A DNA stretch of 60,709 nucleotides from Clostridia bacterium (GCA_045630945.1 JAZQTV010000015.1:1-60709); one strand, 5' to 3'; positions 45,489 through 60,709 are shown, numbered from the stretch's first letter. The notes: generated by a model from the sequence alone, not told the origin. Translations and numbers: made by a program.

Positions 45489-47666
45489 TTACAGATGCAA
45501 TACTCTTTCCTTTATTTCCTGTGTTCTGCCCTGATTCCAGTACTGTGTGCCGATGTAGCCGCAGGTGCGACGCGCAACGTTCATAGTGCTTTGGTCGGTG
45601 TTGCCGCAGTTGGGACAGGTCCATTTAAGCTTGCCATCCTCATCCTCTTTTATTTCTATTTCGCCGTCGAAGCCGCATTTTTGACAGTAATCGCTTTTAG
45701 TATTAAGCTCGGCATACATAATGTTATCGTAAATGAACCGCATAACGCTTAATACTGCTTCGATATTATTTTGCATATTGGGTACTTCAACGTAAGAAAT
45801 CGCGCCGCCGGGGGAAAGTGATTGGAATTTGGCTTCAAGCTTAAGCTTTTCAAAGGCATCTATCGGCTCGGTAACGTGAACGTGATAGCTGTTTGTGATA
45901 TAGCTTTTATCCGTAACACCCTTTACGATACCAAACCGCTTTTGAAGGCACTTTGCAAACTTATAGGTGGTGCTTTCAAGAGGCGTGCCGTACAAGGAAT
46001 AATCGATATTTTCTTCCTTTTTCCATCTTGCAGTATATTCGTTAAGCTTTTGCATTATTTCTAAGCCCAGCTTTTCGCCCTCGGGCTCGGTAAGCTTTTT
46101 GCCCGAAACAGAATATACGCATTCCCAAAGTCCCGCATAACCAAGCGAAAGTGTTGAATATCCGCCGTGCAGGTACTTATCGATGGTTTCGCCCTTGTTA
46201 AGCCTTAAAAGCGCGCCGTGCTGCCACAAAATAGGCGCCGCATCGGAAAGCGTACCCGAAAGCCTTTCGTGACGTGCCTGAAGCGCCTGATGGCAAAGCT
46301 CCATTCTTTCGTCAAAAATCTTCCAGAACTCATCCATATCTCCGCCTGCGGAAAGACCGATATCCACAAGGTTTACCGTTACAACGCCCTGATTGAAGCG
46401 GCCGTAATACTTAGGCTTGTTATTTTCATCAACGAACGGTGTTAAAAAGCTTCGGCAACCCATACAGGTGTAGCAATGTCCTTCACCGTTTTTATCAATT
46501 TTGTTCTGAAGCATTATCTTTTCCGAAATATAATCCGGCACCATTCGCTTTGCGGTACATTTAGCCGCAAGCTCGGTAAGATAATAATATTTACTGTCTT
46601 TATGAATATTATCCTCCTCAAGCACATATATAAGCTTAGGGAATGCAGGAGTTATCCATACGCCCTTTTCATTTTTAACACCCTGAATGCGCTGATAAAG
46701 CGTTTCCTCTATAATAAGTGCAAGGTCCTTCTTTTCCTGCTCGTTCTTTGCTTCGTTAAGATACATAAATACAGTTACAAAGGGTGCCTGACCGTTAGTG
46801 GTCATAAGCGTTACAACCTGATACTGAATGGTCTGTATTCCGTTGCGTATCTCTTCACGCAGGCGGTTTTCTGTCAGCTTATCAAGCTTTTCTTCGCTTA
46901 AAACCTCGCCGATTGCCTTTAATTCAGCCTCTGCATTCTTACGAATCTTCTTTCTGCTTATATCAACAAAGGGTGCAAGATGAGTTAAGCTGATGCTTTG
47001 ACCGCCGTACTGGCATGAAGCAACCTGCGCGATTATCTGCGTTGCAATATTACAGGCGGTTGAAAAGCTGTGGGGCTTTTCAATTAACGTGCCGCTTATA
47101 ACGGTGCCGTTTTGAAGCATATCCTCAAGGTTTACAAGGTCGCAGTTATGCATATGTTGGGCAAAATAATCAGCATCGTGGAAATGTATAATTCCCTTTT
47201 CGTGTGCTTCAACTATTTCCTTGGGAAGCAAAATACGTCTTGTAATATCCTTGCTTACCTCGCCTGCCATATAATCACGCTGAACACTGTTTACGGTGGG
47301 GTTTTTGTTGGAATTTTCCTGCTTTACCTCTTCGTTATTGCACTCAATCAGCGAAAGTATCTGCTCGTCCGTGGTATTTGCCTTTCTTACGAGGGCACGG
47401 GTGTAACGATAGGTAATATAGTTACGTGCCACGTCAAACGCGCTTTGATTCATAATCTGATTTTCAACCATATCCTGTATCTCTTCAACGTTAAGGGAAC
47501 GGTTAAGATTCATCGCCGCACTTTCAACGTCTTCGGCAATACGCTTAATCTGAATAGGCGTCATTCTTGAAGATGGCACAACGCTTTCGTTTGCACGGGT
47601 TATCGCCTGAACTATCTTTTCCTTGTCAAAAACAACCTCTGCACCGCTTCGTTTAATTATTTTCAT
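45489..47666 (-). CDS. nrdD: Anaerobic ribonucleoside-triphosphate reductase (class III)
   Basis: N-terminal ATP-cone (MKIIKRSGAEVVFDKEKI), C-terminal zinc ribbon CQKCG...CPNCG and the glycyl-radical motif RRTCGYIG. Confidence 0.97.
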   Translation of the reverse strand: MKIIKRSGAEVVFDKEKIVQAITRANESVVPSSRMTPIQIKRIAEDVESAAMNLNRSLNVEEIQDMVENQIMNQSAFDVARNYITYRYTRALVRKANTTDEQILSLIECNNEEVKQENSNKNPTVNSVQRDYMAGEVSKDITRRILLPKEIVEAHEKGIIHFHDADYFAQHMHNCDLVNLEDMLQNGTVISGTLIEKPHSFSTACNIATQIIAQVASCQYGGQSISLTHLAPFVDISRKKIRKNAEAELKAIGEVLSEEKLDKLTENRLREEIRNGIQTIQYQVVTLMTTNGQAPFVTVFMYLNEAKNEQEKKDLALIIEETLYQRIQGVKNEKGVWITPAFPKLIYVLEEDNIHKDSKYYYLTELAAKCTAKRMVPDYISEKIMLQNKIDKNGEGHCYTCMGCRSFLTPFVDENNKPKYYGRFNQGVVTVNLVDIGLSAGGDMDEFWKIFDERMELCHQALQARHERLSGTLSDAAPILWQHGALLRLNKGETIDKYLHGGYSTLSLGYAGLWECVYSVSGKKLTEPEGEKLGLEIMQKLNEYTARWKKEENIDYSLYGTPLESTTYKFAKCLQKRFGIVKGVTDKSYITNSYHVHVTEPIDAFEKLKLEAKFQSLSPGGAISYVEVPNMQNNIEAVLSVMRFIYDNIMYAELNTKSDYCQKCGFDGEIEIKEDEDGKLKWTCPNCGNTDQSTMNVARRTCGYIGTQYWNQGRTQEIKERVLHL

Positions 47667-48977: not shown

Positions 48978-49000
48978 TAGCATCTAAACTTAAACAAACA

Positions 49001-49034
49001 AAACCGACAGATTTTACAGTCTGTCGGTTTTTTA
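49001..49034 (+). terminator. Rho-independent terminator; last core-genome feature before the low-GC island
   Basis: AAACCGACAGA / TCTGTCGGTTT stem followed by a T run. Confidence 0.85.
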
Positions 49035-49102
49035 TTTGTGTTGATTGCCCGCGCTTGCAAAAATATGTGCAACACAGCGCTAAAAAAATTTATTGCGCTA
49101 TG

Positions 49103-49294
49103 TCATGCCGCATTCTTGCGATTGGTATAATTACGCCTACTATATTCATCATAATCGTCAAGCACGTTATAAAACTTACTTTTCGTGCGTTTTCTTACAA
49201 CTCTTTTTCTGTTTCTTAAACGCTTTCCCTCAGTACAGATACTGATTAAAATATTTATACCAAGCCAGAGCATAATCACAATTAAAGCACCCAT
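49103..49294 (-). CDS. Small membrane protein (63 aa) with strongly basic tail
   Basis: AAGGAGG RBS 9 nt before the ATG. One TM helix (ALIVIMLWLGINILISIC) is followed by KRLRNRKRVVRKRTKSK. Confidence 0.5.
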   Translation of the reverse strand: MGALIVIMLWLGINILISICTEGKRLRNRKRVVRKRTKSKFYNVLDDYDEYSRRNYTNRKNAA

Positions 49295-49517
49295 TTAAAA
49301 GTACCTCCTTTTGTTATTTACACCCTGATTATACAACAAGAAAAGTACCGAAAACGGGCTTTTTTGAAGATTATTGTTGATGTGTATAAATATTCATTAT
49401 AAACGAATATATACAAATAATAGCTTCGTTTAATCATTACTATTGTATATCAATAAATTCCGTTAACAAAATATTAACAAAACAAAAAGTCTATTGTAGC
49501 CGTTTGGCTATATAAGC

Positions 49518-49548
49518 AAAAGGCTTCAAGATGACCTTGGAGCCTTTT
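49518..49548. terminator. Hairpin terminator just downstream of the 185-aa gene
   Basis: 13-bp stem AAAAGGCTTCAAG / CTTGGAGCCTTTT (one G-U pair) flanked by A/T runs. Confidence 0.65.
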
Positions 49549-49554
49549 GTTGTT

Positions 49555-50112
49555 TTAATCTACATTTTGTTCTTTTGCTTTCTTTAATTGATTGATAATG
49601 TTACGTTCCTCAAGTTTGCGTTTCTTATGATCAGATATGTAACGATTATATAAGTAACTCATATTCTGCTTTTTTGCGGCATTTACACAAGCCAGGAAAT
49701 ATTCTGTTTTTTTATAACCGTTGCTATTTATGTTTTCCATAAGTCTGTCGTATTCCTCCGGATAAAGCATGATAGAAAATCTTCTTTTCTTGAACGATTG
49801 CCGTGCAAGTGTAAGAGGATGAAGATGTTCACGGTTAGTTTTTTCTGTCTTTTTCAGATCGTCCTCAATAACTTCATTGGGCAAGTTATCTTTCTTTTGT
49901 GTATCCAACACTAAAACATCATCTTCTTGCAGTTCTTCACCATTGTTAATAAAGATATCAATGTTTTTTGTTTTTACACAAAAAGCGTGCGCGGTATCAT
50001 CGGTAGGATGTAGTATGATTTTATCCGAAAAGATCTTTGCCGCATTCAGTTCCATTTCGACAGATTTGCCTTTAAACATAAAAAAGGCCTTAATTTTTGA
50101 AAAAATTCTCAT
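49555..50112 (-). CDS. Hypothetical protein with C-terminal ribbon-helix-helix (CopG/MobC-like) segment
   Basis: AAGGAG RBS. The C-terminal KRRFSIMLYPEEYDRLMENINSNGYKKTEYFLACV fits the RHH strand-helix-helix pattern of MobC/CopG proteins. The N-terminal roughly 100 aa are unrecognised. Confidence 0.5.
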   Translation of the reverse strand: MRIFSKIKAFFMFKGKSVEMELNAAKIFSDKIILHPTDDTAHAFCVKTKNIDIFINNGEELQEDDVLVLDTQKKDNLPNEVIEDDLKKTEKTNREHLHPLTLARQSFKKRRFSIMLYPEEYDRLMENINSNGYKKTEYFLACVNAAKKQNMSYLYNRYISDHKKRKLEERNIINQLKKAKEQNVD

Positions 50113-50203
50113 ATAGATTTTTCTCCTTTATATTTATTAAGCACAGAAAGATTTGTGCCTTCATAACAGCAGCTGCAACCTCCTTTCGATGCTGTTAGGT
50201 GCA

Positions 50204-50238
50204 TAAAAAAACAGGCCTAAAACAATATTAGGCCTGTT
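50204..50238 (-). terminator. Terminator of the ATPase cassette
   Basis: Minus strand has a 10-bp stem ACAGGCCTAA / TTAGGCCTGT followed by T7, 27 nt after the stop. Confidence 0.8.
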
Positions 50239-50264
50239 AAGTAATAATAAATCATTTATAAGTA

Positions 50265-52490
50265 CTATTCTGTTTCAAGCATATTACAACTCTTATATAA
50301 TTCAACGAGTTGGTAGTTTGGTATGTCGATCAATGGTTCGTACATAAAAGCATTAACATGAATGCTTTCTGGAGTAATCAAAAGAACATCACTTATGATG
50401 GCTTTTTCTTCATCTGATAAATGATCATAAGCACGGTTAGCCCACTCGCGAGTTTGGTTGCTTTCACAAATTATATCAATTTCATGATTAATCAAGACAT
50501 GACGCAAAAAGAACTCAGCTTTCAAACGGATAGCTATAGAAAGAATAATTTTGTTTATCAAAGATACTCCTGTTGCATTTTCGTTGCAAATATCATCAGC
50601 CATCTTATAAACTGTATTGACCCATGTGTCTGATGCACAAGAGCATAATAAAAGTTCTAATGAAAACGGCTCTTTGATATGGTTCCAACAATCTTCAATA
50701 GTAATATTGACTGTATTTAACTTCACATGCAACATTCCTGTTAAATAATCTCTTAATGGATTATTTGCAGTGTATTCGCAAATGTTTCTGCAAAAAGGAA
50801 CTGACGAGATAAATGCACGTAGCATGTCTTTATTAGATAAATTGCCCGATCGAATTTTTTCAATAATACCAACATTAAAGAAATCTTTTCTATATTGAAA
50901 AGGAGCCATCGTTATTCTGCCATCAGCCTCCTTTTGCGCAATAAAACACATATTATAGCTTATATTAAGTCTAGAAGAAACGGTTCTGTAAAAATCAAAA
51001 TTATGTGTTAATATTAACAAATCAATCATGTTGTTACTTGATAACTCACTTAAATATTCTATTATTGCATACTTATTTGAATAATCAAATGAATCCGCAA
51101 TATCGTCTGCTACAACCAATTGTTTTTGACCGCTTTTATTTGCTGCATCTTTAATTTTTTCAAGATCAAAAAGAACCTGCAAAAGATATAGGGCATGTTT
51201 TTCGCCTACACTCAAGCATCCCATTAAATCATCTTTTGTTTTTTCTCGTTGCTCTTGACCGCGAACATAATTAAATGAAAGTCGCGCAGGTTCATCATTC
51301 AACATAACCCTTCTCGGGTTTTGGATTTCCACGTTAAAAGGCGCATGAAATCTTTTCTTAAACAATTCTACTACATACTCCCAGTGTTTTCGCTGTTTAT
51401 CAACTTCTTCCAATAGCGCATCAATCTCTTTTTTCTTCGTTTTAATTGAAGCGTTGAGAGTTCTAATATCAAATGATTCTGCATCAAGATATGATATCCA
51501 AATTGCTTTTTTTGTATTAGCCAAATCATTAAGATATTTTATAATTTCCTTATGTTCCTTTATTAAACCTTTTAACACTCGTGCGGCATTATTTCCATTA
51601 ATTAATTTGCTTATGCTATTATGTATACTTGATAATTCAGGCGTATTGTTAATTCGTTCAATTTCTTCATGTACAATCGAATTCCAAGAAGAAATATCGG
51701 AAATAACGGTACCGTCATTCAACAAAAGCTTATGCCTTGCTGAAAACAACCTTGTTTTCTCAATTATTTTTCCAAATTCAACGGCATTGTAATCATCAAA
51801 TTGCAAGCTAAGAAGTTTTGAATCTTTAACTAAATTCCCGTATGTATCAATGTATTGTTGAATTTTTTCTTTAAAAACTAAATCAGCTAATATTTTTTCC
51901 GTATATATATTAAATAATTGATCGTACTTTATTTCCGCCAATTCGCTATGCGGTATAATTTGTGATTCCGCGCCCAATAATGTTTCAATAATTAGTTCCC
52001 AATCGGCATCTATCGTTAATTCGAAGTCTTTGCAAATTTGAATACGAATTTGCTCTTCATCGAATGAAGTATAAGACTTAAAAACACTAATAAAAGAGTC
52101 AATTTCAGAAGAATATGCTCTATGTATAGCATCGTATTTTTGACGTAGCTCATCATCCGCCAATATGGTAGCAACGCTATCAGAATAAGCTTCGAATTTT
52201 TCATCAAAAGAATTAATAACATAAATATTCGGCTGATCATTTTTTCTATATTTAGTGTTTTCTGAATATACAGATGAATAATATTCGACTGTATATGTTG
52301 ATTTTCTCTCAGTAAATATACGATCAATTGGTTTCTTTTTCCTAGATATATCATCTAAAACCTTCGAAAAAGAACTCTTCATAACACCATTAGGAGCATA
52401 TATAATAGCCTTCGAATTATTAGAATCAAATTTAATTTCTTTAATGGTAAAATCCTCTAAGCCGTAACAATTTTTAAAGGTTGCTTTCAT
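50265..52490 (-). CDS. Coiled-coil ABC/SMC-like ATPase of the AAA_13 (RloC/PrrC-like) type with extra C-terminal domain
   Basis: Walker-A-like IIYAPNGVMKSS (aa 29-40). A long helical insert spans aa ~100-400. Signature-like LSVGEKHALYLLQVLF (aa 426-441), Walker B QLVVADDIADSFD (aa 457-469) and LILTHNFDF (aa 492-500) follow. A further ~240 aa C-terminal domain contains RHVLINH. AAGGAG RBS. Confidence 0.7.
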   Translation of the reverse strand: MKATFKNCYGLEDFTIKEIKFDSNNSKAIIYAPNGVMKSSFSKVLDDISRKKKPIDRIFTERKSTYTVEYYSSVYSENTKYRKNDQPNIYVINSFDEKFEAYSDSVATILADDELRQKYDAIHRAYSSEIDSFISVFKSYTSFDEEQIRIQICKDFELTIDADWELIIETLLGAESQIIPHSELAEIKYDQLFNIYTEKILADLVFKEKIQQYIDTYGNLVKDSKLLSLQFDDYNAVEFGKIIEKTRLFSARHKLLLNDGTVISDISSWNSIVHEEIERINNTPELSSIHNSISKLINGNNAARVLKGLIKEHKEIIKYLNDLANTKKAIWISYLDAESFDIRTLNASIKTKKKEIDALLEEVDKQRKHWEYVVELFKKRFHAPFNVEIQNPRRVMLNDEPARLSFNYVRGQEQREKTKDDLMGCLSVGEKHALYLLQVLFDLEKIKDAANKSGQKQLVVADDIADSFDYSNKYAIIEYLSELSSNNMIDLLILTHNFDFYRTVSSRLNISYNMCFIAQKEADGRITMAPFQYRKDFFNVGIIEKIRSGNLSNKDMLRAFISSVPFCRNICEYTANNPLRDYLTGMLHVKLNTVNITIEDCWNHIKEPFSLELLLCSCASDTWVNTVYKMADDICNENATGVSLINKIILSIAIRLKAEFFLRHVLINHEIDIICESNQTREWANRAYDHLSDEEKAIISDVLLITPESIHVNAFMYEPLIDIPNYQLVELYKSCNMLETE

Positions 52491-52550
52491 TTTATTCTCC
52501 TTATAAAAGTTTTAAAAACATGCGATATTCTTATAATTGAACTATTTATA

Positions 52551-52588
52551 ACAAAAGCAACCGGTTTGAATGTGTCAGACCTGTTGCC
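52551..52588 (-). other. Intergenic hairpin between the 4-TM gene and the ATPase gene (attenuator or partial terminator?)
   Basis: Minus strand has GCAACAGG...CCGGTTGC (7 of 8 bp pair) followed by TTTTGTT, in the 110-nt gap. Confidence 0.35.
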
Positions 52589-52600
52589 TAGTTTTAATTT

Positions 52601-53101
52601 TTATTTTGAAATATCGTAAGAACCATCGATATAATTTTCGCCGGTTTGTATAGCTTCGATAAGAGAATTCTTATCAGTCGTAATAGTTCCTTCGCTCGAA
52701 ACTAAAAACAAATTAATTCGATTGTCCAAAACAGCATATGCTTTGCGATAACATTTTTTGTGTTGTTGAGGGTTGATTGCATATCCAAATATAATAAAGG
52801 ATAATGAAACAATAGACAAAAACAACACACATTCTTTGCAAACGTACGGTTCTATAGACAAATAAATTACTGCCGCATTTGCAACAAAAGGTATAATAAC
52901 AAATGCATATTCCGTAAACATCCACAATGTAGCTGCAATAAGCCAAGTACGGGATCTTCCAACTGCCTTCTTTAATAAGAAATCTTTTGCAAGCATATCT
53001 TTGCGTATGTGATTATATCTATTCAATGACAAAAAAATCGCAATTATCCACACAACAAAAAACAAAAATATTACAACCGATATACCAATAATGTATTTCA
53101 T
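52601..53101 (-). CDS. Small polytopic membrane protein (166 aa), no recognised family
   Basis: AAGGA RBS. Hydrophobic helices lie at about aa 5-25, 52-80 (probably two) and 90-112, followed by a soluble ~50-aa tail. It sits directly upstream of the ATPase on the same strand. Confidence 0.6.
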   Translation of the reverse strand: MKYIIGISVVIFLFFVVWIIAIFLSLNRYNHIRKDMLAKDFLLKKAVGRSRTWLIAATLWMFTEYAFVIIPFVANAAVIYLSIEPYVCKECVLFLSIVSLSFIIFGYAINPQQHKKCYRKAYAVLDNRINLFLVSSEGTITTDKNSLIEAIQTGENYIDGSYDISK

Positions 53102-53216
53102 CTTTGTTTTATCCTTTATTCTATACGTTATTTCTTATTAATACAGCGAGAATTATCAATCGTGCCACAAAAAAGGAAACAGGAGAGCTTTTTGCTTGTA
53201 TTATAAATCCCATAAC

Positions 53217-53247
53217 ATTATACCATTTGCGGTATGATAAAGTCAAT
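53217..53247 (-). promoter_or_regulatory. Promoter of the 4-TM/ATPase cassette
   Basis: Minus strand reads TTGACT (53242-53247), 19 nt, TGgTATAAT (extended -10, TATAAT = 53217-53222). Confidence 0.55.
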
Positions 53248-53489
53248 ATTTAAAGCCAAATGTTGACAAAAAACAGGCTTGAGAGTTAACTCTAAGATTG
53301 TTAAACTATTGTTTTTCACCTGTTACCAACACAAAATAAACATAACATTGTATTTCCGTGCTCACTAAGGGATGTTTTTTGTTAAAAAAGATTCATTAGA
53401 GCAGTTGCTTATTCTTTGTAATACATATCATTTAGATATAATACATTTGGATGATATTATAGAGGATTTTTTATTACAAACACATATAT

Positions 53490-53518
53490 AAAAAACAGGC
53501 TTGAATTTCAAACCTGCT
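53490..53518 (-). terminator. Terminator of the Panacea toxin-antitoxin operon
   Basis: Minus strand has CAGGTTTGAA / TTCAAGCCTG stem (one G-U pair) followed by T6, about 70 nt after the stop at 53587. Confidence 0.75.
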
Positions 53519-53586
53519 TGGTATTAAATTACCATATGTTAGTTTATAAAAACGGATGCAAAAACAAATATCTGTAGTTATTGCGT

Positions 53587-54579
53587 TTATTCTAACCTTT
53601 GATGCTTTTCACAAAAATATAGTTTACCATCATGGAATAATTCGTCATCGTAAGGAAAAATATAATTACTATTATTAATCTCAAACTCTATATATGTAAT
53701 GTTTTTACCAGAAGAATCCTCTATAACATCAAAACATCTATACATCCCTGGAGAAATAATATACCTTAAATGGGGATCTTCGCTGCTTTTCATTTCACTA
53801 TATGAAATAAAAAACAGTATAGTCATAAATATAACCACAAACGCACATGTTAATACTTGAATTTTTCTTGCTTTTTTTAGTGTTTTGTTAGCTATATTAT
53901 CACAACTTTGTTGATCGTCTGAAATAACCACGACAGTTGGTTCTTTGTGGAAAAGAACAATGCCAAGAAGAATAACCATGGCAATGATAACCACAAGGTT
54001 TGGAACAATAAAAGCAATAACTGCAGAAGCACCACTTGCGTTGTTCAACCACGCACTTGATGTAGTGGCCACAGATAAAATAATTGTGATAACAGCAGTA
54101 AAAACTCCCATCAACGTAAGAACATGAGTTAAAATAGTGTGTTCTGTATCATTAACTTGGCTTTGAAACTTTTTTACACTTTTCTCAACGACATTAACTT
54201 TTGCCTCAAGTTCATGCTTTTTATCATTATAATCTTTTTGAGTAAATTGAACTTGAGAATCAAGCTTTATCATTTGCTTGCGTAGTTTATTGCCATCAAG
54301 AGAAAATTTAAAAGTATATAGCAATATATCAAGCGTTATATGTAATCTCTTTATCTCTGATTTTTTATCAGATCCATTTAATTCTGCAAATTCATGATTG
54401 TCAACCCTATTTTTTATTAAAGTAACGAACGAATAATATGTTTCCACTCTTTCGATTATATCTATGCCATCTAAACTATGAAGACGTATTTTTTCTAATT
54501 CAGAAAGAACCTCTTTAGTTTCTATGTATGAAAATTTCCTGAGTTCGTTTTCCTTTAATGTATTTAAATTAAGACTCAT
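53587..54579 (-). CDS. Coiled-coil + 3-TM protein (330 aa), candidate Panacea-associated toxin
   Basis: About 150 aa of N-terminal heptad-rich helix, then three hydrophobic helices (HVLTLMGVFTAVITIILSV, AVIAFIVPNLVVIIAMVILLGIVLF, VLTCAFVVIFMTILFFI), then a ~75-aa C-terminal domain. It starts 20 nt after the Panacea gene stop. Confidence 0.6.
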   Translation of the reverse strand: MSLNLNTLKENELRKFSYIETKEVLSELEKIRLHSLDGIDIIERVETYYSFVTLIKNRVDNHEFAELNGSDKKSEIKRLHITLDILLYTFKFSLDGNKLRKQMIKLDSQVQFTQKDYNDKKHELEAKVNVVEKSVKKFQSQVNDTEHTILTHVLTLMGVFTAVITIILSVATTSSAWLNNASGASAVIAFIVPNLVVIIAMVILLGIVLFHKEPTVVVISDDQQSCDNIANKTLKKARKIQVLTCAFVVIFMTILFFISYSEMKSSEDPHLRYIISPGMYRCFDVIEDSSGKNITYIEFEINNSNYIFPYDDELFHDGKLYFCEKHQRLE

Positions 54580-54599
54580 CAGAACCCCTTTTTATTGTT

Positions 54600-55082
54600 T
54601 CAAGACAAGATATTGTTTGTTTTATAGAATTTAAACATATCCTGCTTTGAAATGACTTGGCTATGATTTTCATCGTAGGGATTATATACATTTGCCCAAG
54701 GGCCACCAGCAATATGACTCATCATTACCAAGTCATACGTGTCAATATCAACAGTCTTGTTAAAAATATATTCAATGGCATTTTTCATGTTTTGCTCTAG
54801 CAAAGAATGATTTCCTTCTATTGGAGACATTTCGCCATTTTGATATTGCACAAACATATCATAAACCGAAGGAATTACAGGCCCGCTTGGCCAAGCATAA
54901 AACTCATCATTGAACATCGATTTACCATGGTTATCTTGCATGAATTTCGCATCACTAAAATATAATAATTTTTGAAGACGTTTACATGTCATCGAGATTC
55001 TTTCACTATATAACTTTCCTTCATTATATTTGTTAGTTAATTCTATAATAAGGTTTGCAGCAGCAGTACACATAACTGTCAT
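54600..55082 (-). CDS. Panacea (DUF4065, SocA/GepA-like) domain antitoxin
   Basis: ISMTCKRLQKLLYFSDAKFM...FNDEFYAWPSGPVIPSVYDMF...MMSHIAGGPW follows the DUF4065 pattern (KLQKLLYY...F.AW.YGPV.P.VY...SH...PW). GGAGG lies 7 nt before the ATG at 55082; the track start at 55085 is a TTG. Confidence 0.8.
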   Translation of the reverse strand: MTVMCTAAANLIIELTNKYNEGKLYSERISMTCKRLQKLLYFSDAKFMQDNHGKSMFNDEFYAWPSGPVIPSVYDMFVQYQNGEMSPIEGNHSLLEQNMKNAIEYIFNKTVDIDTYDLVMMSHIAGGPWANVYNPYDENHSQVISKQDMFKFYKTNNILS

Positions 55083-55338
55083 CAAGATACCTCCACTTAA
55101 TTAAAGTTTGGCTATAATATAGTATGCAGGTATTCAATCCCGCTATACAAAGCAAACTAAAATTAATAAGGTAACATCCTCCTTTCGTTTTTAAAAAAGT
55201 TAGCTAAAACAACGAAGCTCGCAACACTATCGAGTAACGTGGGTTAAAAAACATCACTTCAACAGGTATTTACAATAATGCACCTATCGTCCAAAATAGA
55301 GGCATTCTACTATTAATCGAATTTTCTGTCAATATATT

Positions 55339-55394
55339 TGTAAACAAGTTTACATATCAACAAGTAAATATGTTTACTTGTAAACATATTTACA
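55339..55394. promoter_or_regulatory. Three adjacent palindromes sharing a GTAAA(C)/(G)TTTAC core (operator array or leader hairpins)
   Basis: TGTAAAC-aa-GTTTACA (55339-55354), CAAGTAAA-tatg-TTTACTTG (55361-55380) and TGTAAA-cata-TTTACA (55379-55394). All arms are perfect. They lie immediately downstream of the promoter at 55408-55436. Confidence 0.6.
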
Positions 55395-55407
55395 ACAATT
55401 TTATGAT

Positions 55408-55436
55408 ATTATACCACACACGGTACTTGTGGTCAA
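55408..55436 (-). promoter_or_regulatory. Strong consensus-like promoter reading toward the Panacea operon
   Basis: Minus strand reads TTGACC (55431-55436), 17 nt, TGgTATAAT (TATAAT = 55408-55413). Confidence 0.6.
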
Positions 55437-55454
55437 GAGCAAAAGGGCATATTG

Positions 55455-55486
55455 TAAAAAAATAAGAGGGGGAGCATTGCTCCCCT
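55455..55486 (-). terminator. Terminator after the orphan-toxin immunity gene
   Basis: GGGGAGC / GCTCCCC stem, followed on the minus strand by a T-rich run (CTTATTTTTTT). Confidence 0.7.
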
Positions 55487-55555
55487 AAAATAATTAATTA
55501 TGATTAAAGTACTTGAGTGCGGCTCAAGTTGAACAAGTTACCGTTCCCTGGGGTG

Positions 55556-55813
55556 TTATTTTCTTTTCACAATGATAAGCTCTGCCGAATTATCATCTAA
55601 AGAATTATACTCATCAAGATGAATGTGTTTAAATTCCGGTACGTTTTCTTGAGCTAACTCCAACAAATGTCTTGCTAATGAAATCAATCCCCCGCTATCA
55701 GCTTCAATTATCACACTATTATTATCAATTGAACATTTTATTGAAAAATCATCCTCCCATACAAACAAAAAATTTTTTCCATCGTATTTAGGTACAAATA
55801 TATCCATTTGCAT
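55556..55813 (-). CDS. Small immunity protein for the orphan Rhs toxin tip (possibly Imm32-like)
   Basis: 85-aa acidic ORF starting 6-12 nt after the toxin stop, with a GAGAGG RBS. The position is typical of cognate immunity genes. The family resemblance is from memory only. Confidence 0.65.
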   Translation of the reverse strand: MQMDIFVPKYDGKNFLFVWEDDFSIKCSIDNNSVIIEADSGGLISLARHLLELAQENVPEFKHIHLDEYNSLDDNSAELIIVKRK

Positions 55814-55819
55814 TACCTC

Positions 55820-58324
55820 TCAATCAAATATATATACATGAGAATTAGCATTCACTTTAAACTTTCCATGTTTTAATGGGTTGGGTATAAGTGTTTCAAA
55901 ATTAAAATGCGGGGCACCTGCATGATTGTTAATTGGCGCTAAATCAGATGCTGTCATTCTAACTTGACGCAATCCGTCTGACGAAACAAATCTGCCTGGA
56001 GACATTTCGGAATAGCCCTCCCCGAGAAAGTCGTTGGCTAAATCAAGCGCATCTGACGAATTAACTTTAATCCCATCTTCAGGCAACGCTTTTTGAGTTC
56101 CACACAGATTATGAACCAAAATCGATTCTTTTCCAACATAATACGTATGGAGATCAGCAACCTCAAAATTGTAAACGGCGACTGGTATCTCGAGAATCTC
56201 GTGTTGGATTTCTTCAACAATGACGTATTCCCCATTTACAGAAACAAGGATATCACCAGCACGTAATTCACAAGCTGCTGTCCATCCTTTTACCGGAGAA
56301 TAAAACGGATGCTCGTTAGTGCAAACAATTTTTTCGCCATTAACTGTTATGGTTATAAGTTCGTTTGTCTCATTGACAAACGTTTGAACAACTTGCTTTA
56401 ATTCGGTTTCACCGGTTTCCGGATTTGTTGCCCAAACATAATCACCGGCACATATATCTTCAATATTGACAAAGCCTGTTGATGAAAGTATTACAGTTCC
56501 TGCTACAAAACAGGCATTACTATTCGCTCCTCCTGTTATTGCACCTGTTATTGCACCGGATAATGCACCGTCAGCCATACCATTCAAGGCAGCCTCACCG
56601 GCACCGTCCCAGCTCCCTGTCGTTAATCGGTGGTTTACAGCTCCGCTTACGGCGCCATTTACTGCTCCTGTTACAAAGCCAACAGCAGCTCCTTTTGCCG
56701 CACCTGCGGCAATACAAGCGATTGCAGTTCCTGTACCCGCAGTTGCAACAGCAACGACTGCTACAACCGCAACAACAGCAACGGCTGCAACAAGTTTTTT
56801 TGCCCAGTTCGGCCAGTTGCCGCTTTCATCCGTCATATTTATGGGATTATTAAAGCAATATACAAATAAGTTGTAACCGTTTACTGATTCGCCCGTGCCT
56901 GAAACAACAGTATCGCAATTTATAAACCTGCCCACATTAGCATCATAATATCTTGACTGCAGATAATACAATCCCGTTTCGGTATCAAAGTAATATCCCC
57001 GATACCTTAACGGGTTAATGTTGGCTATGTGGTTAGCGTTACCTGATACATTATTACCATTACCGTCGGTAATAGCAATATGGTTACCCCAAGAATCATA
57101 GGTATATTGTGCGACAATAGTACCACTTGAATCTATTATACCTATGATATCATTCTGACCGTTACGGAAATAGTAATATTCATTACCGTTGTAACGGAAT
57201 CCTGTAGCTAAACCGTTCTCATCGTAGGTGTACCAGATTACATTGTCGCCGGTCTTTTGCATTACAATAGTAGTGCCGTTTAAATAATAATCAGTACGAA
57301 CACCGTTAATGGTTTTGGATGTCCTGATACCGTTATCGTCATAAGCGTATGTGATACCATTGTTACCTTTTGTAACACCGCTTAACTGTCTGCCACCAGT
57401 CCAAGTAAAGCTTTCGCCATTTATCCAGTTAAGAGGATTGCCAATAGCATCATAATTGATGTTAACACCATTGTAGTTAGTCAGTAAATCACGCCAATTA
57501 GTATCACCGTAGGTGTATACCTTTTGATTGATAAGATTGCCTAACGCGCCTGTGGTATAGGCATACTCATTTACGGCAAGGATATTGCCGCCATTATCGT
57601 ATGTGTAGGTAATAGTTTTGCCTAATTCATAATTATCCTCGCGGACAAGCTGATTGAGTGCATCATAGTGATAATGCACAAGCTCATATCCTGCAGGATG
57701 TCCGATGGACGTTATATTACCGTTTGCATCATAGGCATAGTTATATGCCATACCGTTACTATATGATACGTAACTCAACTGTGTTGAAGTATTTTTGTAG
57801 TTTACATCCTTAAATCCATATGAAGTTGTAAAGGGTGTGGTTGTGTTGAGGGTTGTTGAGGTGCGTCTGCCGAGGTTATCATACTTATATGTAAGCTTTT
57901 CTGTACCGTTATAGCTTACACCGTAGATAACGCCATTTTTTTGTGAAAGGTCAAACGAATCCGTCTCACCGTAGCGCCACTCGGTTGTAAGGGTATCAGA
58001 GCCAAAGCCGAACTTAACGTCGCTTGCTCTGTTAAACTCATCATAAGTGATTTTAATTACAAAACCTTGAGAGGTACGAACTTGTACAGGTCTGCCTACA
58101 AAATCGTATAAATATTTGTATGTAATATCTTGTACCAAATCAGTAGCCGAATGTATGTTTCCACGGCTATCGTAAACATATGAAAATTTGTCAATACCGT
58201 CAATGGTGAGCTTTATTACACGCTGTTGGTCATCGTAGGTGTATTTGCGTGTATCACCGTTACCATAGGTTGCGGTGTCAAGCAGACCTGTTACCTCATC
58301 GTACAGGTTTGTAATAAGTGTATT
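55820..58324 (-). CDS. Orphan Rhs/YD-repeat C-terminal cassette: YD repeats + Rhs core end + Gly/Ala-rich pre-toxin region + Hint domain + 95-aa unknown toxin tip
   Basis: My manual translation shows the frame open from 58324, just after a TGA at 58325-58327. There is no ATG; the only in-frame start is the TTG at 58138 used by the track. YD repeats are YTYDxxGN-like. The core end is YYLQSRYYDANVGRF...NNPINMTDESGNW. The Gly/Ala-rich region is aa 441-542 of the 772-aa track protein (numbered from the TTG at 58138). The Hint domain CFVAGT...ILVHN spans nt 56108-56512 and the toxin tip nt 55823-56107. Confidence 0.8.
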   Translation of the reverse strand, partial: NTLITNLYDEVTGLLDTATYGNGDTRKYTYDDQQRVIKLTIDGIDKFSYVYDSRGNIHSATDLVQDITYKYLYDFVGRPVQVRTSQGFVIKITYDEFNRASDVKFGFGSDTLTTEWRYGETDSFDLSQKNGVIYGVSYNGTEKLTYKYDNLGRRTSTTLNTTTPFTTSYGFKDVNYKNTSTQLSYVSYSNGMAYNYAYDANGNITSIGHPAGYELVHYHYDALNQLVREDNYELGKTITYTYDNGGNILAVNEYAYTTGALGNLINQKVYTYGDTNWRDLLTNYNGVNINYDAIGNPLNWINGESFTWTGGRQLSGVTKGNNGITYAYDDNGIRTSKTINGVRTDYYLNGTTIVMQKTGDNVIWYTYDENGLATGFRYNGNEYYYFRNGQNDIIGIIDSSGTIVAQYTYDSWGNHIAITDGNGNNVSGNANHIANINPLRYRGYYFDTETGLYYLQSRYYDANVGRFINCDTVVSGTGESVNGYNLFVYCFNNPINMTDESGNWPNWAKKLVAAVAVVAVVAVVAVATAGTGTAIACIAAGAAKGAAVGFVTGAVNGAVSGAVNHRLTTGSWDGAGEAALNGMADGALSGAITGAITGGANSNACFVAGTVILSSTGFVNIEDICAGDYVWATNPETGETELKQVVQTFVNETNELITITVNGEKIVCTNEHPFYSPVKGWTAACELRAGDILVSVNGEYVIVEEIQHEILEIPVAVYNFEVADLHTYYVGKESILVHNLCGTQKALPEDGIKVNSSDALDLANDFLGEGYSEMSPGRFVSSDGLRQVRMTASDLAPINNHAGAPHFNFETLIPNPLKHGKFKVNANSHVYIFD
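56941..58118 (-). repeat. Direct repeat copy A (orphan Rhs YD-repeat region)
   Basis: It aligns without indels to 59532-60709 at a constant offset of 2591 nt. By eye the copies are highly similar, with identical runs such as 57468-57514 = 60059-60105. Similarity stops at the YYD codons, where the toxin-proximal parts diverge. Confidence 0.85.
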
Positions 58325-58352: not shown

Positions 58353-58880
58353 TCACCTATCATTTTCTTGCTCTTTTTCAGAAGCCTTCTTGGAACGATA
58401 TTTCTTTGGAACAAACACCCGATATAATAAATCTTCAATAAACCGAATTATAGGATTGCGAGAACGATAATGTGTGTTCATCATAATATTAGCGGTTATA
58501 AACATACAAAATAAACAAACCATACTAATACAGTATATTACTCCATGAAAGCCGCTACCCGTTATTTCACACTTTATTACATATACATTCAGAAATATCA
58601 CGCTACATATTGCACTCACAAGGTTAATTATAAAAATAACGTAATGCCATTTTTTAACTAAGTGCCTCATATCCCAAAACAACAGTTTTTTAATAAATCC
58701 TGCTTTTTTTCTGATTTTCCATAGTTCTTTCTTTGCACGTTTTCCATAAGCTAATTCAGTATCCTTTGCAAACATCTCGCCAGCATTGAATAAACAAAAA
58801 AATATTATAAGTACCACTATGCTCATTGCGCTTACAAGTAAGCATTGAAAGAATATACTGATAAATTTACTTAAAAACAT
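58353..58880 (-). CDS. Polytopic membrane immunity protein (175 aa) for the main Rhs toxin
   Basis: About four TM helices. AAGAGG RBS. The ATG overlaps the last 14 nt of the Rhs gene. GC content is very low. Confidence 0.65.
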   Translation of the reverse strand: MFLSKFISIFFQCLLVSAMSIVVLIIFFCLFNAGEMFAKDTELAYGKRAKKELWKIRKKAGFIKKLLFWDMRHLVKKWHYVIFIINLVSAICSVIFLNVYVIKCEITGSGFHGVIYCISMVCLFCMFITANIMMNTHYRSRNPIIRFIEDLLYRVFVPKKYRSKKASEKEQENDR

Positions 58881-60709
58881 TTCTAAACCTCTTGTATAAC
58901 GCTTTTGAGACGCTTACTGCACCCGATTGTACTCCTGATATAAACATAGGCTTAATAAGATATTTTTTATACGCAAATTTTGTTTGAGAAACGTAATATT
59001 TAACACCTTTTTGTATTATCTTTTTTGATCCTGTAGCTATTTTCTTGGTTAAGCGGCTATTTAATGTTTTTATGTTTACATACTTGCCCATTCCTTTGTC
59101 GTTACCGGTAATGGCGCCAACTGCGCCGTCAAAAAGCATATCACCTACATCGAAATTATCAAAACCCTTGTTACTTATCACTTGGTTTGCGGCATTACTT
59201 ACCATAGAAATCGCAGAATTCGCTATCATAGAAACACCGGCACCAACGCCTGAAGCAGCAAGCGCGCCACTTGCCATACCACCAACCACGGCTACACCGA
59301 GACCTTCAGACCAAGTTTTTCCCTCTGCCAAATTGCTAGCAACTTGGGTGATACCGGAAACTATACCGCCCAAAATAGCGCCAACGGCTATATGCCAAAA
59401 CTCTCCGTCACTATCAACTCTCGTAATGGGATTGTTATCACAATATGTAAACAAATTTTTGTCGGTTAATTCAGTGGGTGTTGCAATTAAAGCGTTTTCA
59501 TTATCAGGATTAAGTATTCTACGTGCTTCAGTATCATAATACCTTGATTGTAGATAATATAATCCTGTCTCGGTATCGAAGTAATAACCCCTATATCTTA
59601 ACGGATTTATGTTGGCTATGTGATTGGGATTAGAAGCAACGTTGTTGCCGTTACCGTCGGTAATAGCAATATGCTTACCCCAAGAATCATAAGTATATTG
59701 TGCAACAGTTGTACCGCTTGAGTTTATAATACCAATGATATCATTCTGACCGTTGCGGAAATAATAATATTCATTACCATTATATCTGAAGCCTGTTGCT
59801 AAACCGTTTTCATCATAGGTGTACCAGATTACGTTATCTCCGGTCTTTTGCATTATAACGGTAGTGCCATTGAGATAATAATCTGTCCTTATGCCGTTAA
59901 CTGTCTTACTTGTCCTGATACCATTATCATCATAAGCATAGCTAATGGTATTATTGCCTTTTGATACGCCTGTAAGCTGACGACCACCTGACCAAGTGAA
60001 TGATTCACCGTTTATCCAATTAGTTGGATTACCGACAGCATCATAATTGATGTTAACGCCATTGTAGTTAGTCAGTAAATCACGCCAATTAGTATCACCG
60101 TAGGTATACACTTTTTGACTAACAATGTTACCGAGTGCACCCGTTGTATAGGCATACTCATTTACGGCAAGTATATTGCCGCCATTATCATAAGTGTATG
60201 TAATAGTCTTATTTAATTGTGCATTATCCTCTCTTGTTAACTGATTAAGTTCATCGTAGTAATACTTAACAATATCATAGCCTGCAGGGTCTATAATGTT
60301 TGTAATGTTACCGTTTACATCATAGGCATAGTTATATGCCATACCGTTGCTATATGATACGTAACTTAACTGTGTTGAGGTGTTTTTATAATTGAGGTCT
60401 TTAAAGCCGTAGCTTGTAACAAACGGAGTTGTTGTATTGAGGGTTGTTGAGGTGCGTCTGCCTAAATTATCATACTTGTAGGTAAGCTTCTCTGTACCAT
60501 TGTAACCAACACCGTAGATAACACCGTTTTTCTGCGAAAGATCAAAGGAATCGGTTTCACCATAGCGCCATTCGGTAGTAAGGGTATCTGAACTAAAGCC
60601 GAACTTAACGTCACTTGCTCTGTTGTACTCATCATAGGTTATCTTTATAACAAAACCCTGTGATGTACGTACTTGTACAGGTCTGCCTACGAAATCGTAT
60701 AAATATTTG
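58867..60709 (-). CDS. Rhs/WapA-type YD-repeat polymorphic toxin, C-terminal part (N-terminus beyond the right edge)
   Basis: By my translation the frame stays open upstream of the track ATG at 60342 (…QLSYVSYSNGMAYNY), at least to about 60372, and the in-frame, indel-free nucleotide homology to the open orphan frame suggests it continues to the window edge. YD repeats, then the core end YYLQSRYYDTEARRILNPD...NNPITRVDSDGEFW. The 178-aa C-terminal region (nt 58870-59403) is a Gly/Ala/Ser-rich hydrophobic segment plus a Lys-rich tail. Confidence 0.85.
   Translation of the reverse strand, partial: KYLYDFVGRPVQVRTSQGFVIKITYDEYNRASDVKFGFSSDTLTTEWRYGETDSFDLSQKNGVIYGVGYNGTEKLTYKYDNLGRRTSTTLNTTTPFVTSYGFKDLNYKNTSTQLSYVSYSNGMAYNYAYDVNGNITNIIDPAGYDIVKYYYDELNQLTREDNAQLNKTITYTYDNGGNILAVNEYAYTTGALGNIVSQKVYTYGDTNWRDLLTNYNGVNINYDAVGNPTNWINGESFTWSGGRQLTGVSKGNNTISYAYDDNGIRTSKTVNGIRTDYYLNGTTVIMQKTGDNVIWYTYDENGLATGFRYNGNEYYYFRNGQNDIIGIINSSGTTVAQYTYDSWGKHIAITDGNGNNVASNPNHIANINPLRYRGYYFDTETGLYYLQSRYYDTEARRILNPDNENALIATPTELTDKNLFTYCDNNPITRVDSDGEFWHIAVGAILGGIVSGITQVASNLAEGKTWSEGLGVAVVGGMASGALAASGVGAGVSMIANSAISMVSNAANQVISNKGFDNFDVGDMLFDGAVGAITGNDKGMGKYVNIKTLNSRLTKKIATGSKKIIQKGVKYYVSQTKFAYKKYLIKPMFISGVQSGAVSVSKALYKRFRNVFK
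59532..60709 (-). repeat. Direct repeat copy B (main Rhs gene), truncated by the window edge
   Basis: Partner of 56941-58118. Encoded proteins are near-identical (for example NGGNILAVNEYAYTTGALGN and DNVIWYTYDENGLATGFRYNGNEYYYFRNGQNDIIGII in both). Confidence 0.85.

Follow-up and report, generated by a model that had tools for sequence, protein, structure and literature searches.

Within a 60,709-nucleotide stretch of DNA from a Clostridia bacterium (GCA_045630945.1 JAZQTV010000015.1:1-60709), analysed over its whole length and referred to here as the window, two genes lie in tandem on the minus strand between positions 53587 and 55082. The first encodes a small Panacea-domain protein (PanA), a putative antitoxin, and the second a 330-amino-acid (aa) membrane protein, the putative toxin (PanT). 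Our analysis indicates that the two form a conserved module, and that the membrane protein is best read as a divergent relative of a described group of PanA-associated toxins. The genes and the signals around them are arranged as follows.

54600-55082, minus strand: panA, encoding a stand-alone Panacea-domain protein of 160 aa, the putative antitoxin
54580-54599, minus strand: spacer of 20 nt between panA and the 330-aa gene, holding AAAGGGG as the ribosome-binding site of the second gene
53587-54579, minus strand: putative toxin gene, a 330-aa open reading frame (ORF) read from the sequence
53493-53519, minus strand: intrinsic-terminator-like hairpin closing the bicistronic unit, with a 12-bp stem followed by TTTTATATATG (T run)
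55304-55332, minus strand: proximal promoter-like site, TTGACA, 17 nt, TAGAAT (11 of 12 matches)
55408-55436, minus strand: distal promoter-like site, TTGACC, 17 nt, TG-extended TATAAT (11 of 12 matches; a consensus match only)
55340-55393, strand not applicable: three 14-bp palindromes, GTAAAC-NN-GTTTAC, between both promoter-like sites
55469-55485, minus strand: intrinsic-terminator-like hairpin closing the upstream Rhs/Imm32 unit (7-bp stem with six G-C pairs, T-rich tail), which is the 5' boundary of the module

A preliminary description of this DNA had placed here a 160-aa Panacea protein, a 20-nt gap and a 330-aa ORF, all of which were confirmed on the minus strand by ORF reading and by a match to Pfam PF13274; the shared terminator that it put at 53490-53518 was found at 53519-53493. 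The panA ORF spans 54600-55085 when read from a TTG codon, and the ATG at 55082, 7 nt past GGAGG, gives the 160-aa product. The proximal promoter-like site implies a leader of ~215 nt. With terminators on both sides and promoter-like sites of this kind, the pair is thus a self-contained unit. The palindromes upstream of panA, one exact and two with one mismatch, number three against an expected 0.21 and occur nowhere else in the window. Their cluster may be an operator array; none was conserved at the related loci at which they were looked for, and the window PanA itself has no DNA-binding domain.

The identity of the antitoxin candidate is clear from its profile matches. PanA matches Pfam PF13274 SocA_Panacea with an E value of 1.2e-16 and 62 bits (gathering score 25.7), the match covering residues 36-129 and profile positions 1-112 of 113, and it also matches phrog_1281 (E 4e-28). 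It carries no extra N-terminal domain. By these measures, the first gene of the pair encodes a stand-alone PanA. The founding member of the Panacea proteins is SocA, and the window PanA gives a weak match to the NCBIfam SocA equivalog NF047745 (SocA_antitoxin; 61.4 bits, E 8e-17), which would favor a proteolysis-dependent (type VI) system resembling SocAB in which PanA serves as an adaptor handing the membrane protein to a protease. Such a score, however, falls far short of the cut-off set for the equivalog, 190 bits, the 330-aa protein does not resemble SocB, and Kurata et al. report type II-typical complex formation for the PanA-PanT pairs that they tested (PMC8832971). We therefore regard an adaptor role for PanA as quite improbable.

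Homologues of the 330-aa protein show how constant the pairing is. With this protein as query, 5.8 billion proteins searched by word index yielded 49 full-length-related clusters at 28-54 % identity, all of them unnamed; when 1.84 billion representatives were searched exhaustively by profile, no more than 147 clusters came up, fragments counted. The contexts of seven diverse homologues were pooled with nine genome loci to give 13 distinct loci. The back-translated patterns of the genome scan were narrow and yielded only these nine, all in Oscillospirales-type metagenome-assembled genomes (MAGs) labelled Acutalibacteraceae, Faecousia, Eubacteriales or Clostridia. In every one of the 13 loci, the gene immediately ahead of the homologue, in the same orientation, encodes a PanA homologue of 161-169 aa and is separated from the partner gene by a gap of 15-62 nt. 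By tblastn, the PanAs at these loci are 47-73 % identical to the window PanA and the membrane proteins 27-50 % identical to the 330-aa protein. The remaining neighbors vary, and include lysyl-tRNA synthetase, nonribosomal peptide synthetase (NRPS), helix-turn-helix (HTH), surface-protein, spore germination and sugar-nucleotide genes; no other neighbor of the pair in the window is seen again at the 13 loci. The constancy of PanA amid otherwise differing surroundings argues that the module consists of exactly two genes and is mobile. The adjacency of PanA and the 330-aa protein is far beyond chance. Across the loci compared, the 330-aa protein thus appears as a conserved and exclusive partner of PanA, and pairing of this kind is the signature by which PanA-PanT pairs are called.

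Some members of the family show domain shuffling. In P0146 and P0148, several extra transmembrane helices are inserted and the C-terminal HDGNLYFCEEHKTLE domain is kept; in P0094, the C-terminal domain is exchanged for an unrelated beta-rich region of ~180 residues. A tblastn search with the 330-aa protein found no match in either the phage or the plasmid collection.

Hydropathy, an AlphaFold2 model (36 homologues in the alignment; mean predicted local distance difference test score, pLDDT, 81) and the family alignment together divide the putative toxin into four parts, in which TM1 to TM3 denote the successive transmembrane helices.

54139-54579, minus strand: residues 1-147, N-terminal helical domain and long coiled-coil-like helix (AlphaFold2 model), variable in the family (consensus frequency ~0.4)
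53953-54138, minus strand: residues 148-209, a hairpin of TM1, a 12-residue uncharged loop and TM2 (hydropathy, family alignment; hhalign matches are centered here)
53803-53865, minus strand: residues 239-259, third transmembrane helix (hydropathy), preceded by a basic cytoplasmic loop at 210-238
53590-53790, minus strand: residues 264-330, acidic five-stranded beta domain (alignment and domain model), predicted to be extracytoplasmic

The hydropathy scan marks hydrophobic segments at ~148-172, 183-209 and 239-259. In the model, a small N-terminal helical domain (helices 10-14, 18-29 and 39-60) is followed by one unbroken helix, 70-180, whose coiled-coil region runs straight into TM1; further helices occupy 184-211 and 223-265, and the beta domain occupies 272-323. 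The coiled-coil N-terminus, three transmembrane helices and small Cys-containing C-terminal domain of the preliminary description are therefore borne out, as is its statement that the protein falls into no recognised family: of the two proteins searched with hidden Markov models, PanA alone scored above threshold, and the 330-aa protein had no above-threshold family in Pfam, NCBIfam, PHROGs or PADLOC. Its matches to DUF7207, MakA, phrog_5763 and phrog_407 lie far under the cut-offs and were set aside as effects of coiled-coil and transmembrane composition. Membership in the ClyA/MakA alpha-pore-forming toxins was likewise rejected, at 18.5 bits against a cut-off of 320 and with no fold match in the PDB at E <0.1, and PDB sequence matches to a G protein-coupled receptor (GPCR) were spurious transmembrane matches. 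Fold searches of the PDB and BFVD with the full model gave nothing below E 0.02. The C-terminal domain, modelled alone, reached a pLDDT of 87 and found no match in the PDB (best E 0.65).

Conservation within the family is distributed very unevenly. In the family alignment, the stretch from the end of the coiled coil through TM1 and the 12-residue loop has the sequence SEHTxLTHVLTLMGVFSAVITIIMSVVITSSSWLNNAdGASA and a mean consensus frequency of 0.83; TM2 follows at 0.67, and the first 130 residues, TM3 and the loop between TM2 and TM3 stand at only 0.27-0.40. Residues L154, L156, F160, I164, T165, S169, W177, N179, A189, P193 and V196 of the hairpin are invariant, as is E146 just ahead of TM1. 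All faces of TM1 are conserved, and many of its residues are small and polar. This is the pattern expected of a helix packed within an oligomer rather than of a simple membrane anchor. The hairpin, being by far the most conserved part of the protein, would thus be its functional core.

Charge is all but absent from the hairpin loop; the TM2-TM3 loop has ~5 Lys/Arg residues and a net charge of +2.6, and the C-terminal domain has a net charge of -7. Under the positive-inside rule, this distribution would place the N-terminus in the cytoplasm and the C-terminal domain outside, and the latter is probably extracytoplasmic. Conserved in all members of the family are its Y280, F299, H316, L320, C323, H326 and the terminal L-E. 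Cysteines occur at 226, 245, 282 and 323, of which only C323 is invariant.

Kurata et al. (2022; PNAS 119:e2102212119, PMC8832971) validated nine PanA-PanT pairs, three of whose toxins act on membranes. One of these, the PanT of Helicobacter sp., has an N-terminal coiled-coil-like region and C-terminal transmembrane helices, and causes strong depolarisation without uptake of SYTOX Green, that is, without large pores (PMC8832971). The pair from Helicobacter sp. 13S00482-2 (WP_095295401.1 / WP_095295403.1) is placed in PanT cluster T4 (Dataset S1, PMC8832971), which comprises ~80 pairs, all antitoxin-first and with a stand-alone PanA (PMC8832971). Its hosts are mostly Firmicutes (many Clostridia including Acutalibacter muris with WP_066539330.1, as well as Tissierellia, Bacilli and streptococcal prophages), with Campylobacterales and Acinetobacter also represented (PMC8832971). 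Gp52 of Streptococcus phage P9, a T4 member, is recorded as toxic (PMC8832971). Among the relatives of the 330-aa protein, accession look-ups turned up none listed for T4, the assemblies concerned being recent MAGs outside that list.

Profile comparison connects the window family with this cluster. We compared the window family alignment (A1) with an alignment representing T4 (A4: P9 gp52 and phiNIH1.1 p53, both listed as T4 members, with three phage relatives) and with a second group made of the most distant matches of the exhaustive profile search (A2; E 1e-5 to 5e-4), whose hairpin motif, TILGIFSAIVL...SG...SSSVL.N, is related to that of the window family. By hhalign, A1 matches A2 at 99.0 % (E 4.5e-18, 78 columns) and A2 matches T4 at 98.6 % (E 4.8e-16, 187 columns); the direct match between A1 and T4 is weak, at 78.8 % (E 1.6e-5, 29 columns, TM1 motif only). 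Reversed-sequence controls, which keep composition, coiled-coil character and hydrophobicity, gave at most 12 % and E values of 0.0025 or worse, and the profile links are therefore not an artefact of composition. DUF334, the Pfam label of some T4 members and the annotation carried by phiNIH1.1 p53, has no match in the 330-aa protein at E values up to 0.01.

The 330-aa protein is accordingly best read, on these alignments, as a divergent branch of a superfamily of PanA-associated proteins with a coiled coil and a transmembrane hairpin, to which T4 also belongs. As judged from the profiles, the core common to both consists of the highly conserved hairpin and the last part of the coiled coil before it, and the window family is distinguished from T4 by another N-terminal domain and an added acidic C-terminal beta domain. 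Because the direct match is weak, formal membership in the T4 cluster as defined by FlaGs is unproven. Of what the preliminary description proposed, a candidate PanA-PanT pair of a new PanT class, the first part holds as far as the identity of PanA and its conserved, exclusive bicistronic partner are concerned, and the Panacea linkage of homologues is found at all 13 loci, so that the refuting condition which the description named, homologues never linked to Panacea, does not apply. The second part is not supported: the validated Helicobacter member of T4 already has this architecture, and the profiles reach T4 through A2.

The A2 members also carry information on context. P0208, a Holdemanella protein that turns up in hundreds of gut contigs, is encoded at the end of a prophage, where the genes for holin, PanA, P0208 and integrase follow one another; P0246 is PanA-linked and adjoins a Shedu nuclease gene and an integrase. 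In the pair at L038:1809-3451, the gene of P0242 (316 aa) overlaps by 4 nt that of the 231-aa protein ahead of it, which matches neither Panacea nor any other Pfam family, and this partner may represent an antitoxin swap of the kind typical of toxin-antitoxin toxins. In the streptococcal phages, gp51/gp52 of P9 and p52/p53 of phiNIH1.1 directly follow the lysin gene. In P9, phiNIH1.1 and a Holdemanella-type prophage that is widespread in the gut (L033:7712-9033; L034:917-2295; L025:2563-3858), a PanA/membrane-protein pair is flanked by the lysis genes on one side and the prophage end on the other, and the streptococcal phage pairs adjoin virulence morons (streptodornase, speL). The T4-type phage proteins (A4, L034-L037) share a conserved CxCxxNxCxH...H stretch between the second and last transmembrane helices, which may be a metal site.

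The comparative evidence lends good support to a toxin-antitoxin reading, and we hold it to be fairly probable that the pair is a PanA-PanT toxin-antitoxin or abortive-infection module whose toxin depolarises the membrane. In such a scheme, which we infer as regards toxicity, depolarisation, direct binding, docking site, trigger and topology, the 330-aa protein would be inserted in the cytoplasmic membrane with its N-terminal helical domain and coiled coil in the cytoplasm, its hairpin and TM3 in the bilayer and its acidic beta domain outside. When unrestrained, several copies of the toxin would be gathered by their coiled coils, and the hairpins, rich in polar residues, would form an ion-conducting assembly, collapsing the membrane potential and stopping growth. 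Depolarisation without large pores is modelled here on the related PanT of Helicobacter sp. PanA, made from the same transcript, would bind the cytoplasmic part of the toxin, with residues 1-147 as the likely docking region, and keep it inactive until a cue, most likely phage infection, frees it. Stand-alone Panacea proteins neutralise their toxins directly in the systems tested (PMC10440598).

Several observations weigh against this reading. Neither PanA nor the 330-aa protein matches any model in PADLOC-DB 2.0, and a transcript search found no RNA runs with the sequence of the locus. PanA identity and toxin identity do not vary together significantly across the loci (rho 0.19). The link between the window family and T4 is, given the weak direct match, a transitive one through A2, and on the alignments it rests on the transmembrane segment. 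A C. difficile member of T4 is recorded as non-toxic in E. coli (PMC8832971). Finally, the outside-facing domain has no explanation in a simple toxin-antitoxin model.

The last two points would also suit a real PanA-linked module in which the membrane protein arrests nothing and is instead a sensor or exclusion factor, blocking the entry of phage DNA, for example, or signalling through its outside domain, with PanA as partner or regulator. The C-terminal domain is indeed conserved and predicted to face outward, P0094 swaps it for another beta-rich domain as receptors do, and the prophage relatives occupy the moron position past the lysis genes, where exclusion genes are common. However, it is the transmembrane hairpin and not the outside domain that is most conserved, relatives without any outside domain keep their PanA linkage, and two T4 members are toxic, one of them depolarising. 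On balance, a sensor or exclusion factor of this sort seems unlikely. A more speculative thought would make this branch an abortive-infection device that works from the outside in: the conserved acidic beta domain could act as a surface sensor of phage adsorption, DNA injection or cell-wall damage, passing its signal through TM3 to the hairpin, with PanA as the cytoplasmic lock. We consider this very doubtful, but if true, an outside-triggered, Panacea-gated ion channel would represent a way of working that is not known from any toxin-antitoxin system.

The surroundings of the pair offer further context for a PanA-PanT module. The pair lies in a low-GC stretch, ~49000-56000, of 29-33 % GC against 42-46 % in the flanking DNA, which begins after the genes for an SH3-domain protein and the anaerobic ribonucleotide reductase (nrdD, 45489-47666) and looks, from its composition, like a horizontally acquired accessory island. 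Other features in and beside it are given below.

50265-52490, minus strand: homologue of the PADLOC defence candidate PDC-S46, 741 aa, full-length match, E 6.8e-190
52601-53101, minus strand: multi-pass membrane protein of 166 aa directly downstream of the pair, with its own promoter-like site at 53246-53217
55556-58138 and 58353-60342, minus strand: Rhs-repeat/PT-HINT polymorphic toxin region, the toxin being 772 aa from the listed start

The PDC-S46 homologue shows weak signals of an ATP-binding cassette (ABC)/structural maintenance of chromosomes (SMC)-type ATPase and shares the low-GC island with the pair. The 166-aa membrane protein has no match in Pfam, NCBIfam, PHROGs or PADLOC; it was considered as a third gene of the module and rejected, having its own promoter-like site and never recurring beside homologous pairs. 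The island also holds an Imm32 immunity gene, directly downstream of the Rhs/PT-HINT toxin gene, and the variable tip of that toxin, where GC falls. A second Rhs-repeat ORF (491 aa) and a 175-aa ORF without annotation are found further upstream of the toxin, and the arrangement suggests a tandem or rearranged Rhs toxin-immunity array.

The position of the pair directly downstream of the Rhs/PT-HINT toxin and Imm32 genes, in the same low-GC stretch, could make it an accessory of the polymorphic-toxin locus, such as an orphan helper in immunity or export. Between the two, however, come a terminator and the pair's own promoter-like sites, and no Rhs or Imm32 gene adjoins the pair at any of the 13 homologous loci. 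The comparison of neighborhoods largely refutes such a role, which we find scarcely credible. The low-GC island, the defence candidate within it and the relatives at prophage ends or beside Shedu fit a role in defence, and are no proof of one.

If the depolarising PanA-PanT reading is confirmed, a compact and well-delimited subfamily of ~150 clusters at 50 % identity, so far confined to gut Clostridia MAGs and metagenomes, would join the membrane-depolarising PanT toxins. By itself, this would be an incremental addition to a described system. The scattered sequences of T4 would, however, be seen to share one small and highly conserved transmembrane hairpin, a target for mutagenesis and structural work on how the potential is dissipated and how a membrane protein is restrained by a soluble Panacea protein. 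The extra outside-facing domain would in turn provide a handle on what triggers PanA-PanT systems.

Among known systems, SocA-SocB of Caulobacter crescentus has an antitoxin with the same Panacea domain, but SocB is a soluble replication inhibitor degraded via ClpXP, unlike the membrane protein described here, and the window PanA scores far under the cut-off for true SocA equivalents. RosmerTA, with its effector RmrT, and other depolarising abortive-infection effectors resemble the pair in being two-gene modules with a membrane-inserted effector, found in defence islands and prophages; the RosmerTA antitoxin, however, is an ImmA-type protease/HTH protein and not a Panacea protein, and no sequence or fold similarity was found. 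The PanTs of E. coli STEC O31 (T3) and Bartonella apis (T12) are, as the putative toxin here would be, Panacea-neutralised, membrane-acting and depolarising. Unlike it, each is a small peptide whose N-terminus is charged, and they form large, SYTOX-permeable pores; they have neither coiled coil nor outside domain, and no sequence relation to the 330-aa protein was detected.

The closest comparison is with T4 itself. The phage members of T4 have overlapping genes, whereas those of the window family are 15-62 nt apart, and T4-linked PanAs are only ~28 % identical to the window PanA. The T4 phage proteins carry the CxCxxNxCxH loop before their last helix and end there; the window family lacks this loop. 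In its place come a basic loop and a third helix, after which the protein closes with an acidic beta domain of 65 residues whose final stretch is HDGNLYFCxEHxxLE. Nevertheless, the antitoxin-first order and the stand-alone Panacea protein are the same in both, as are a toxin in which transmembrane helices come after an N-terminal coiled coil and mostly Firmicute or prophage hosts. T4 and the window family have in common the motif (T)xxxT..xT(I/L)(L/M)G(V/I)FS(A/S), which spans the end of the coiled coil and TM1.

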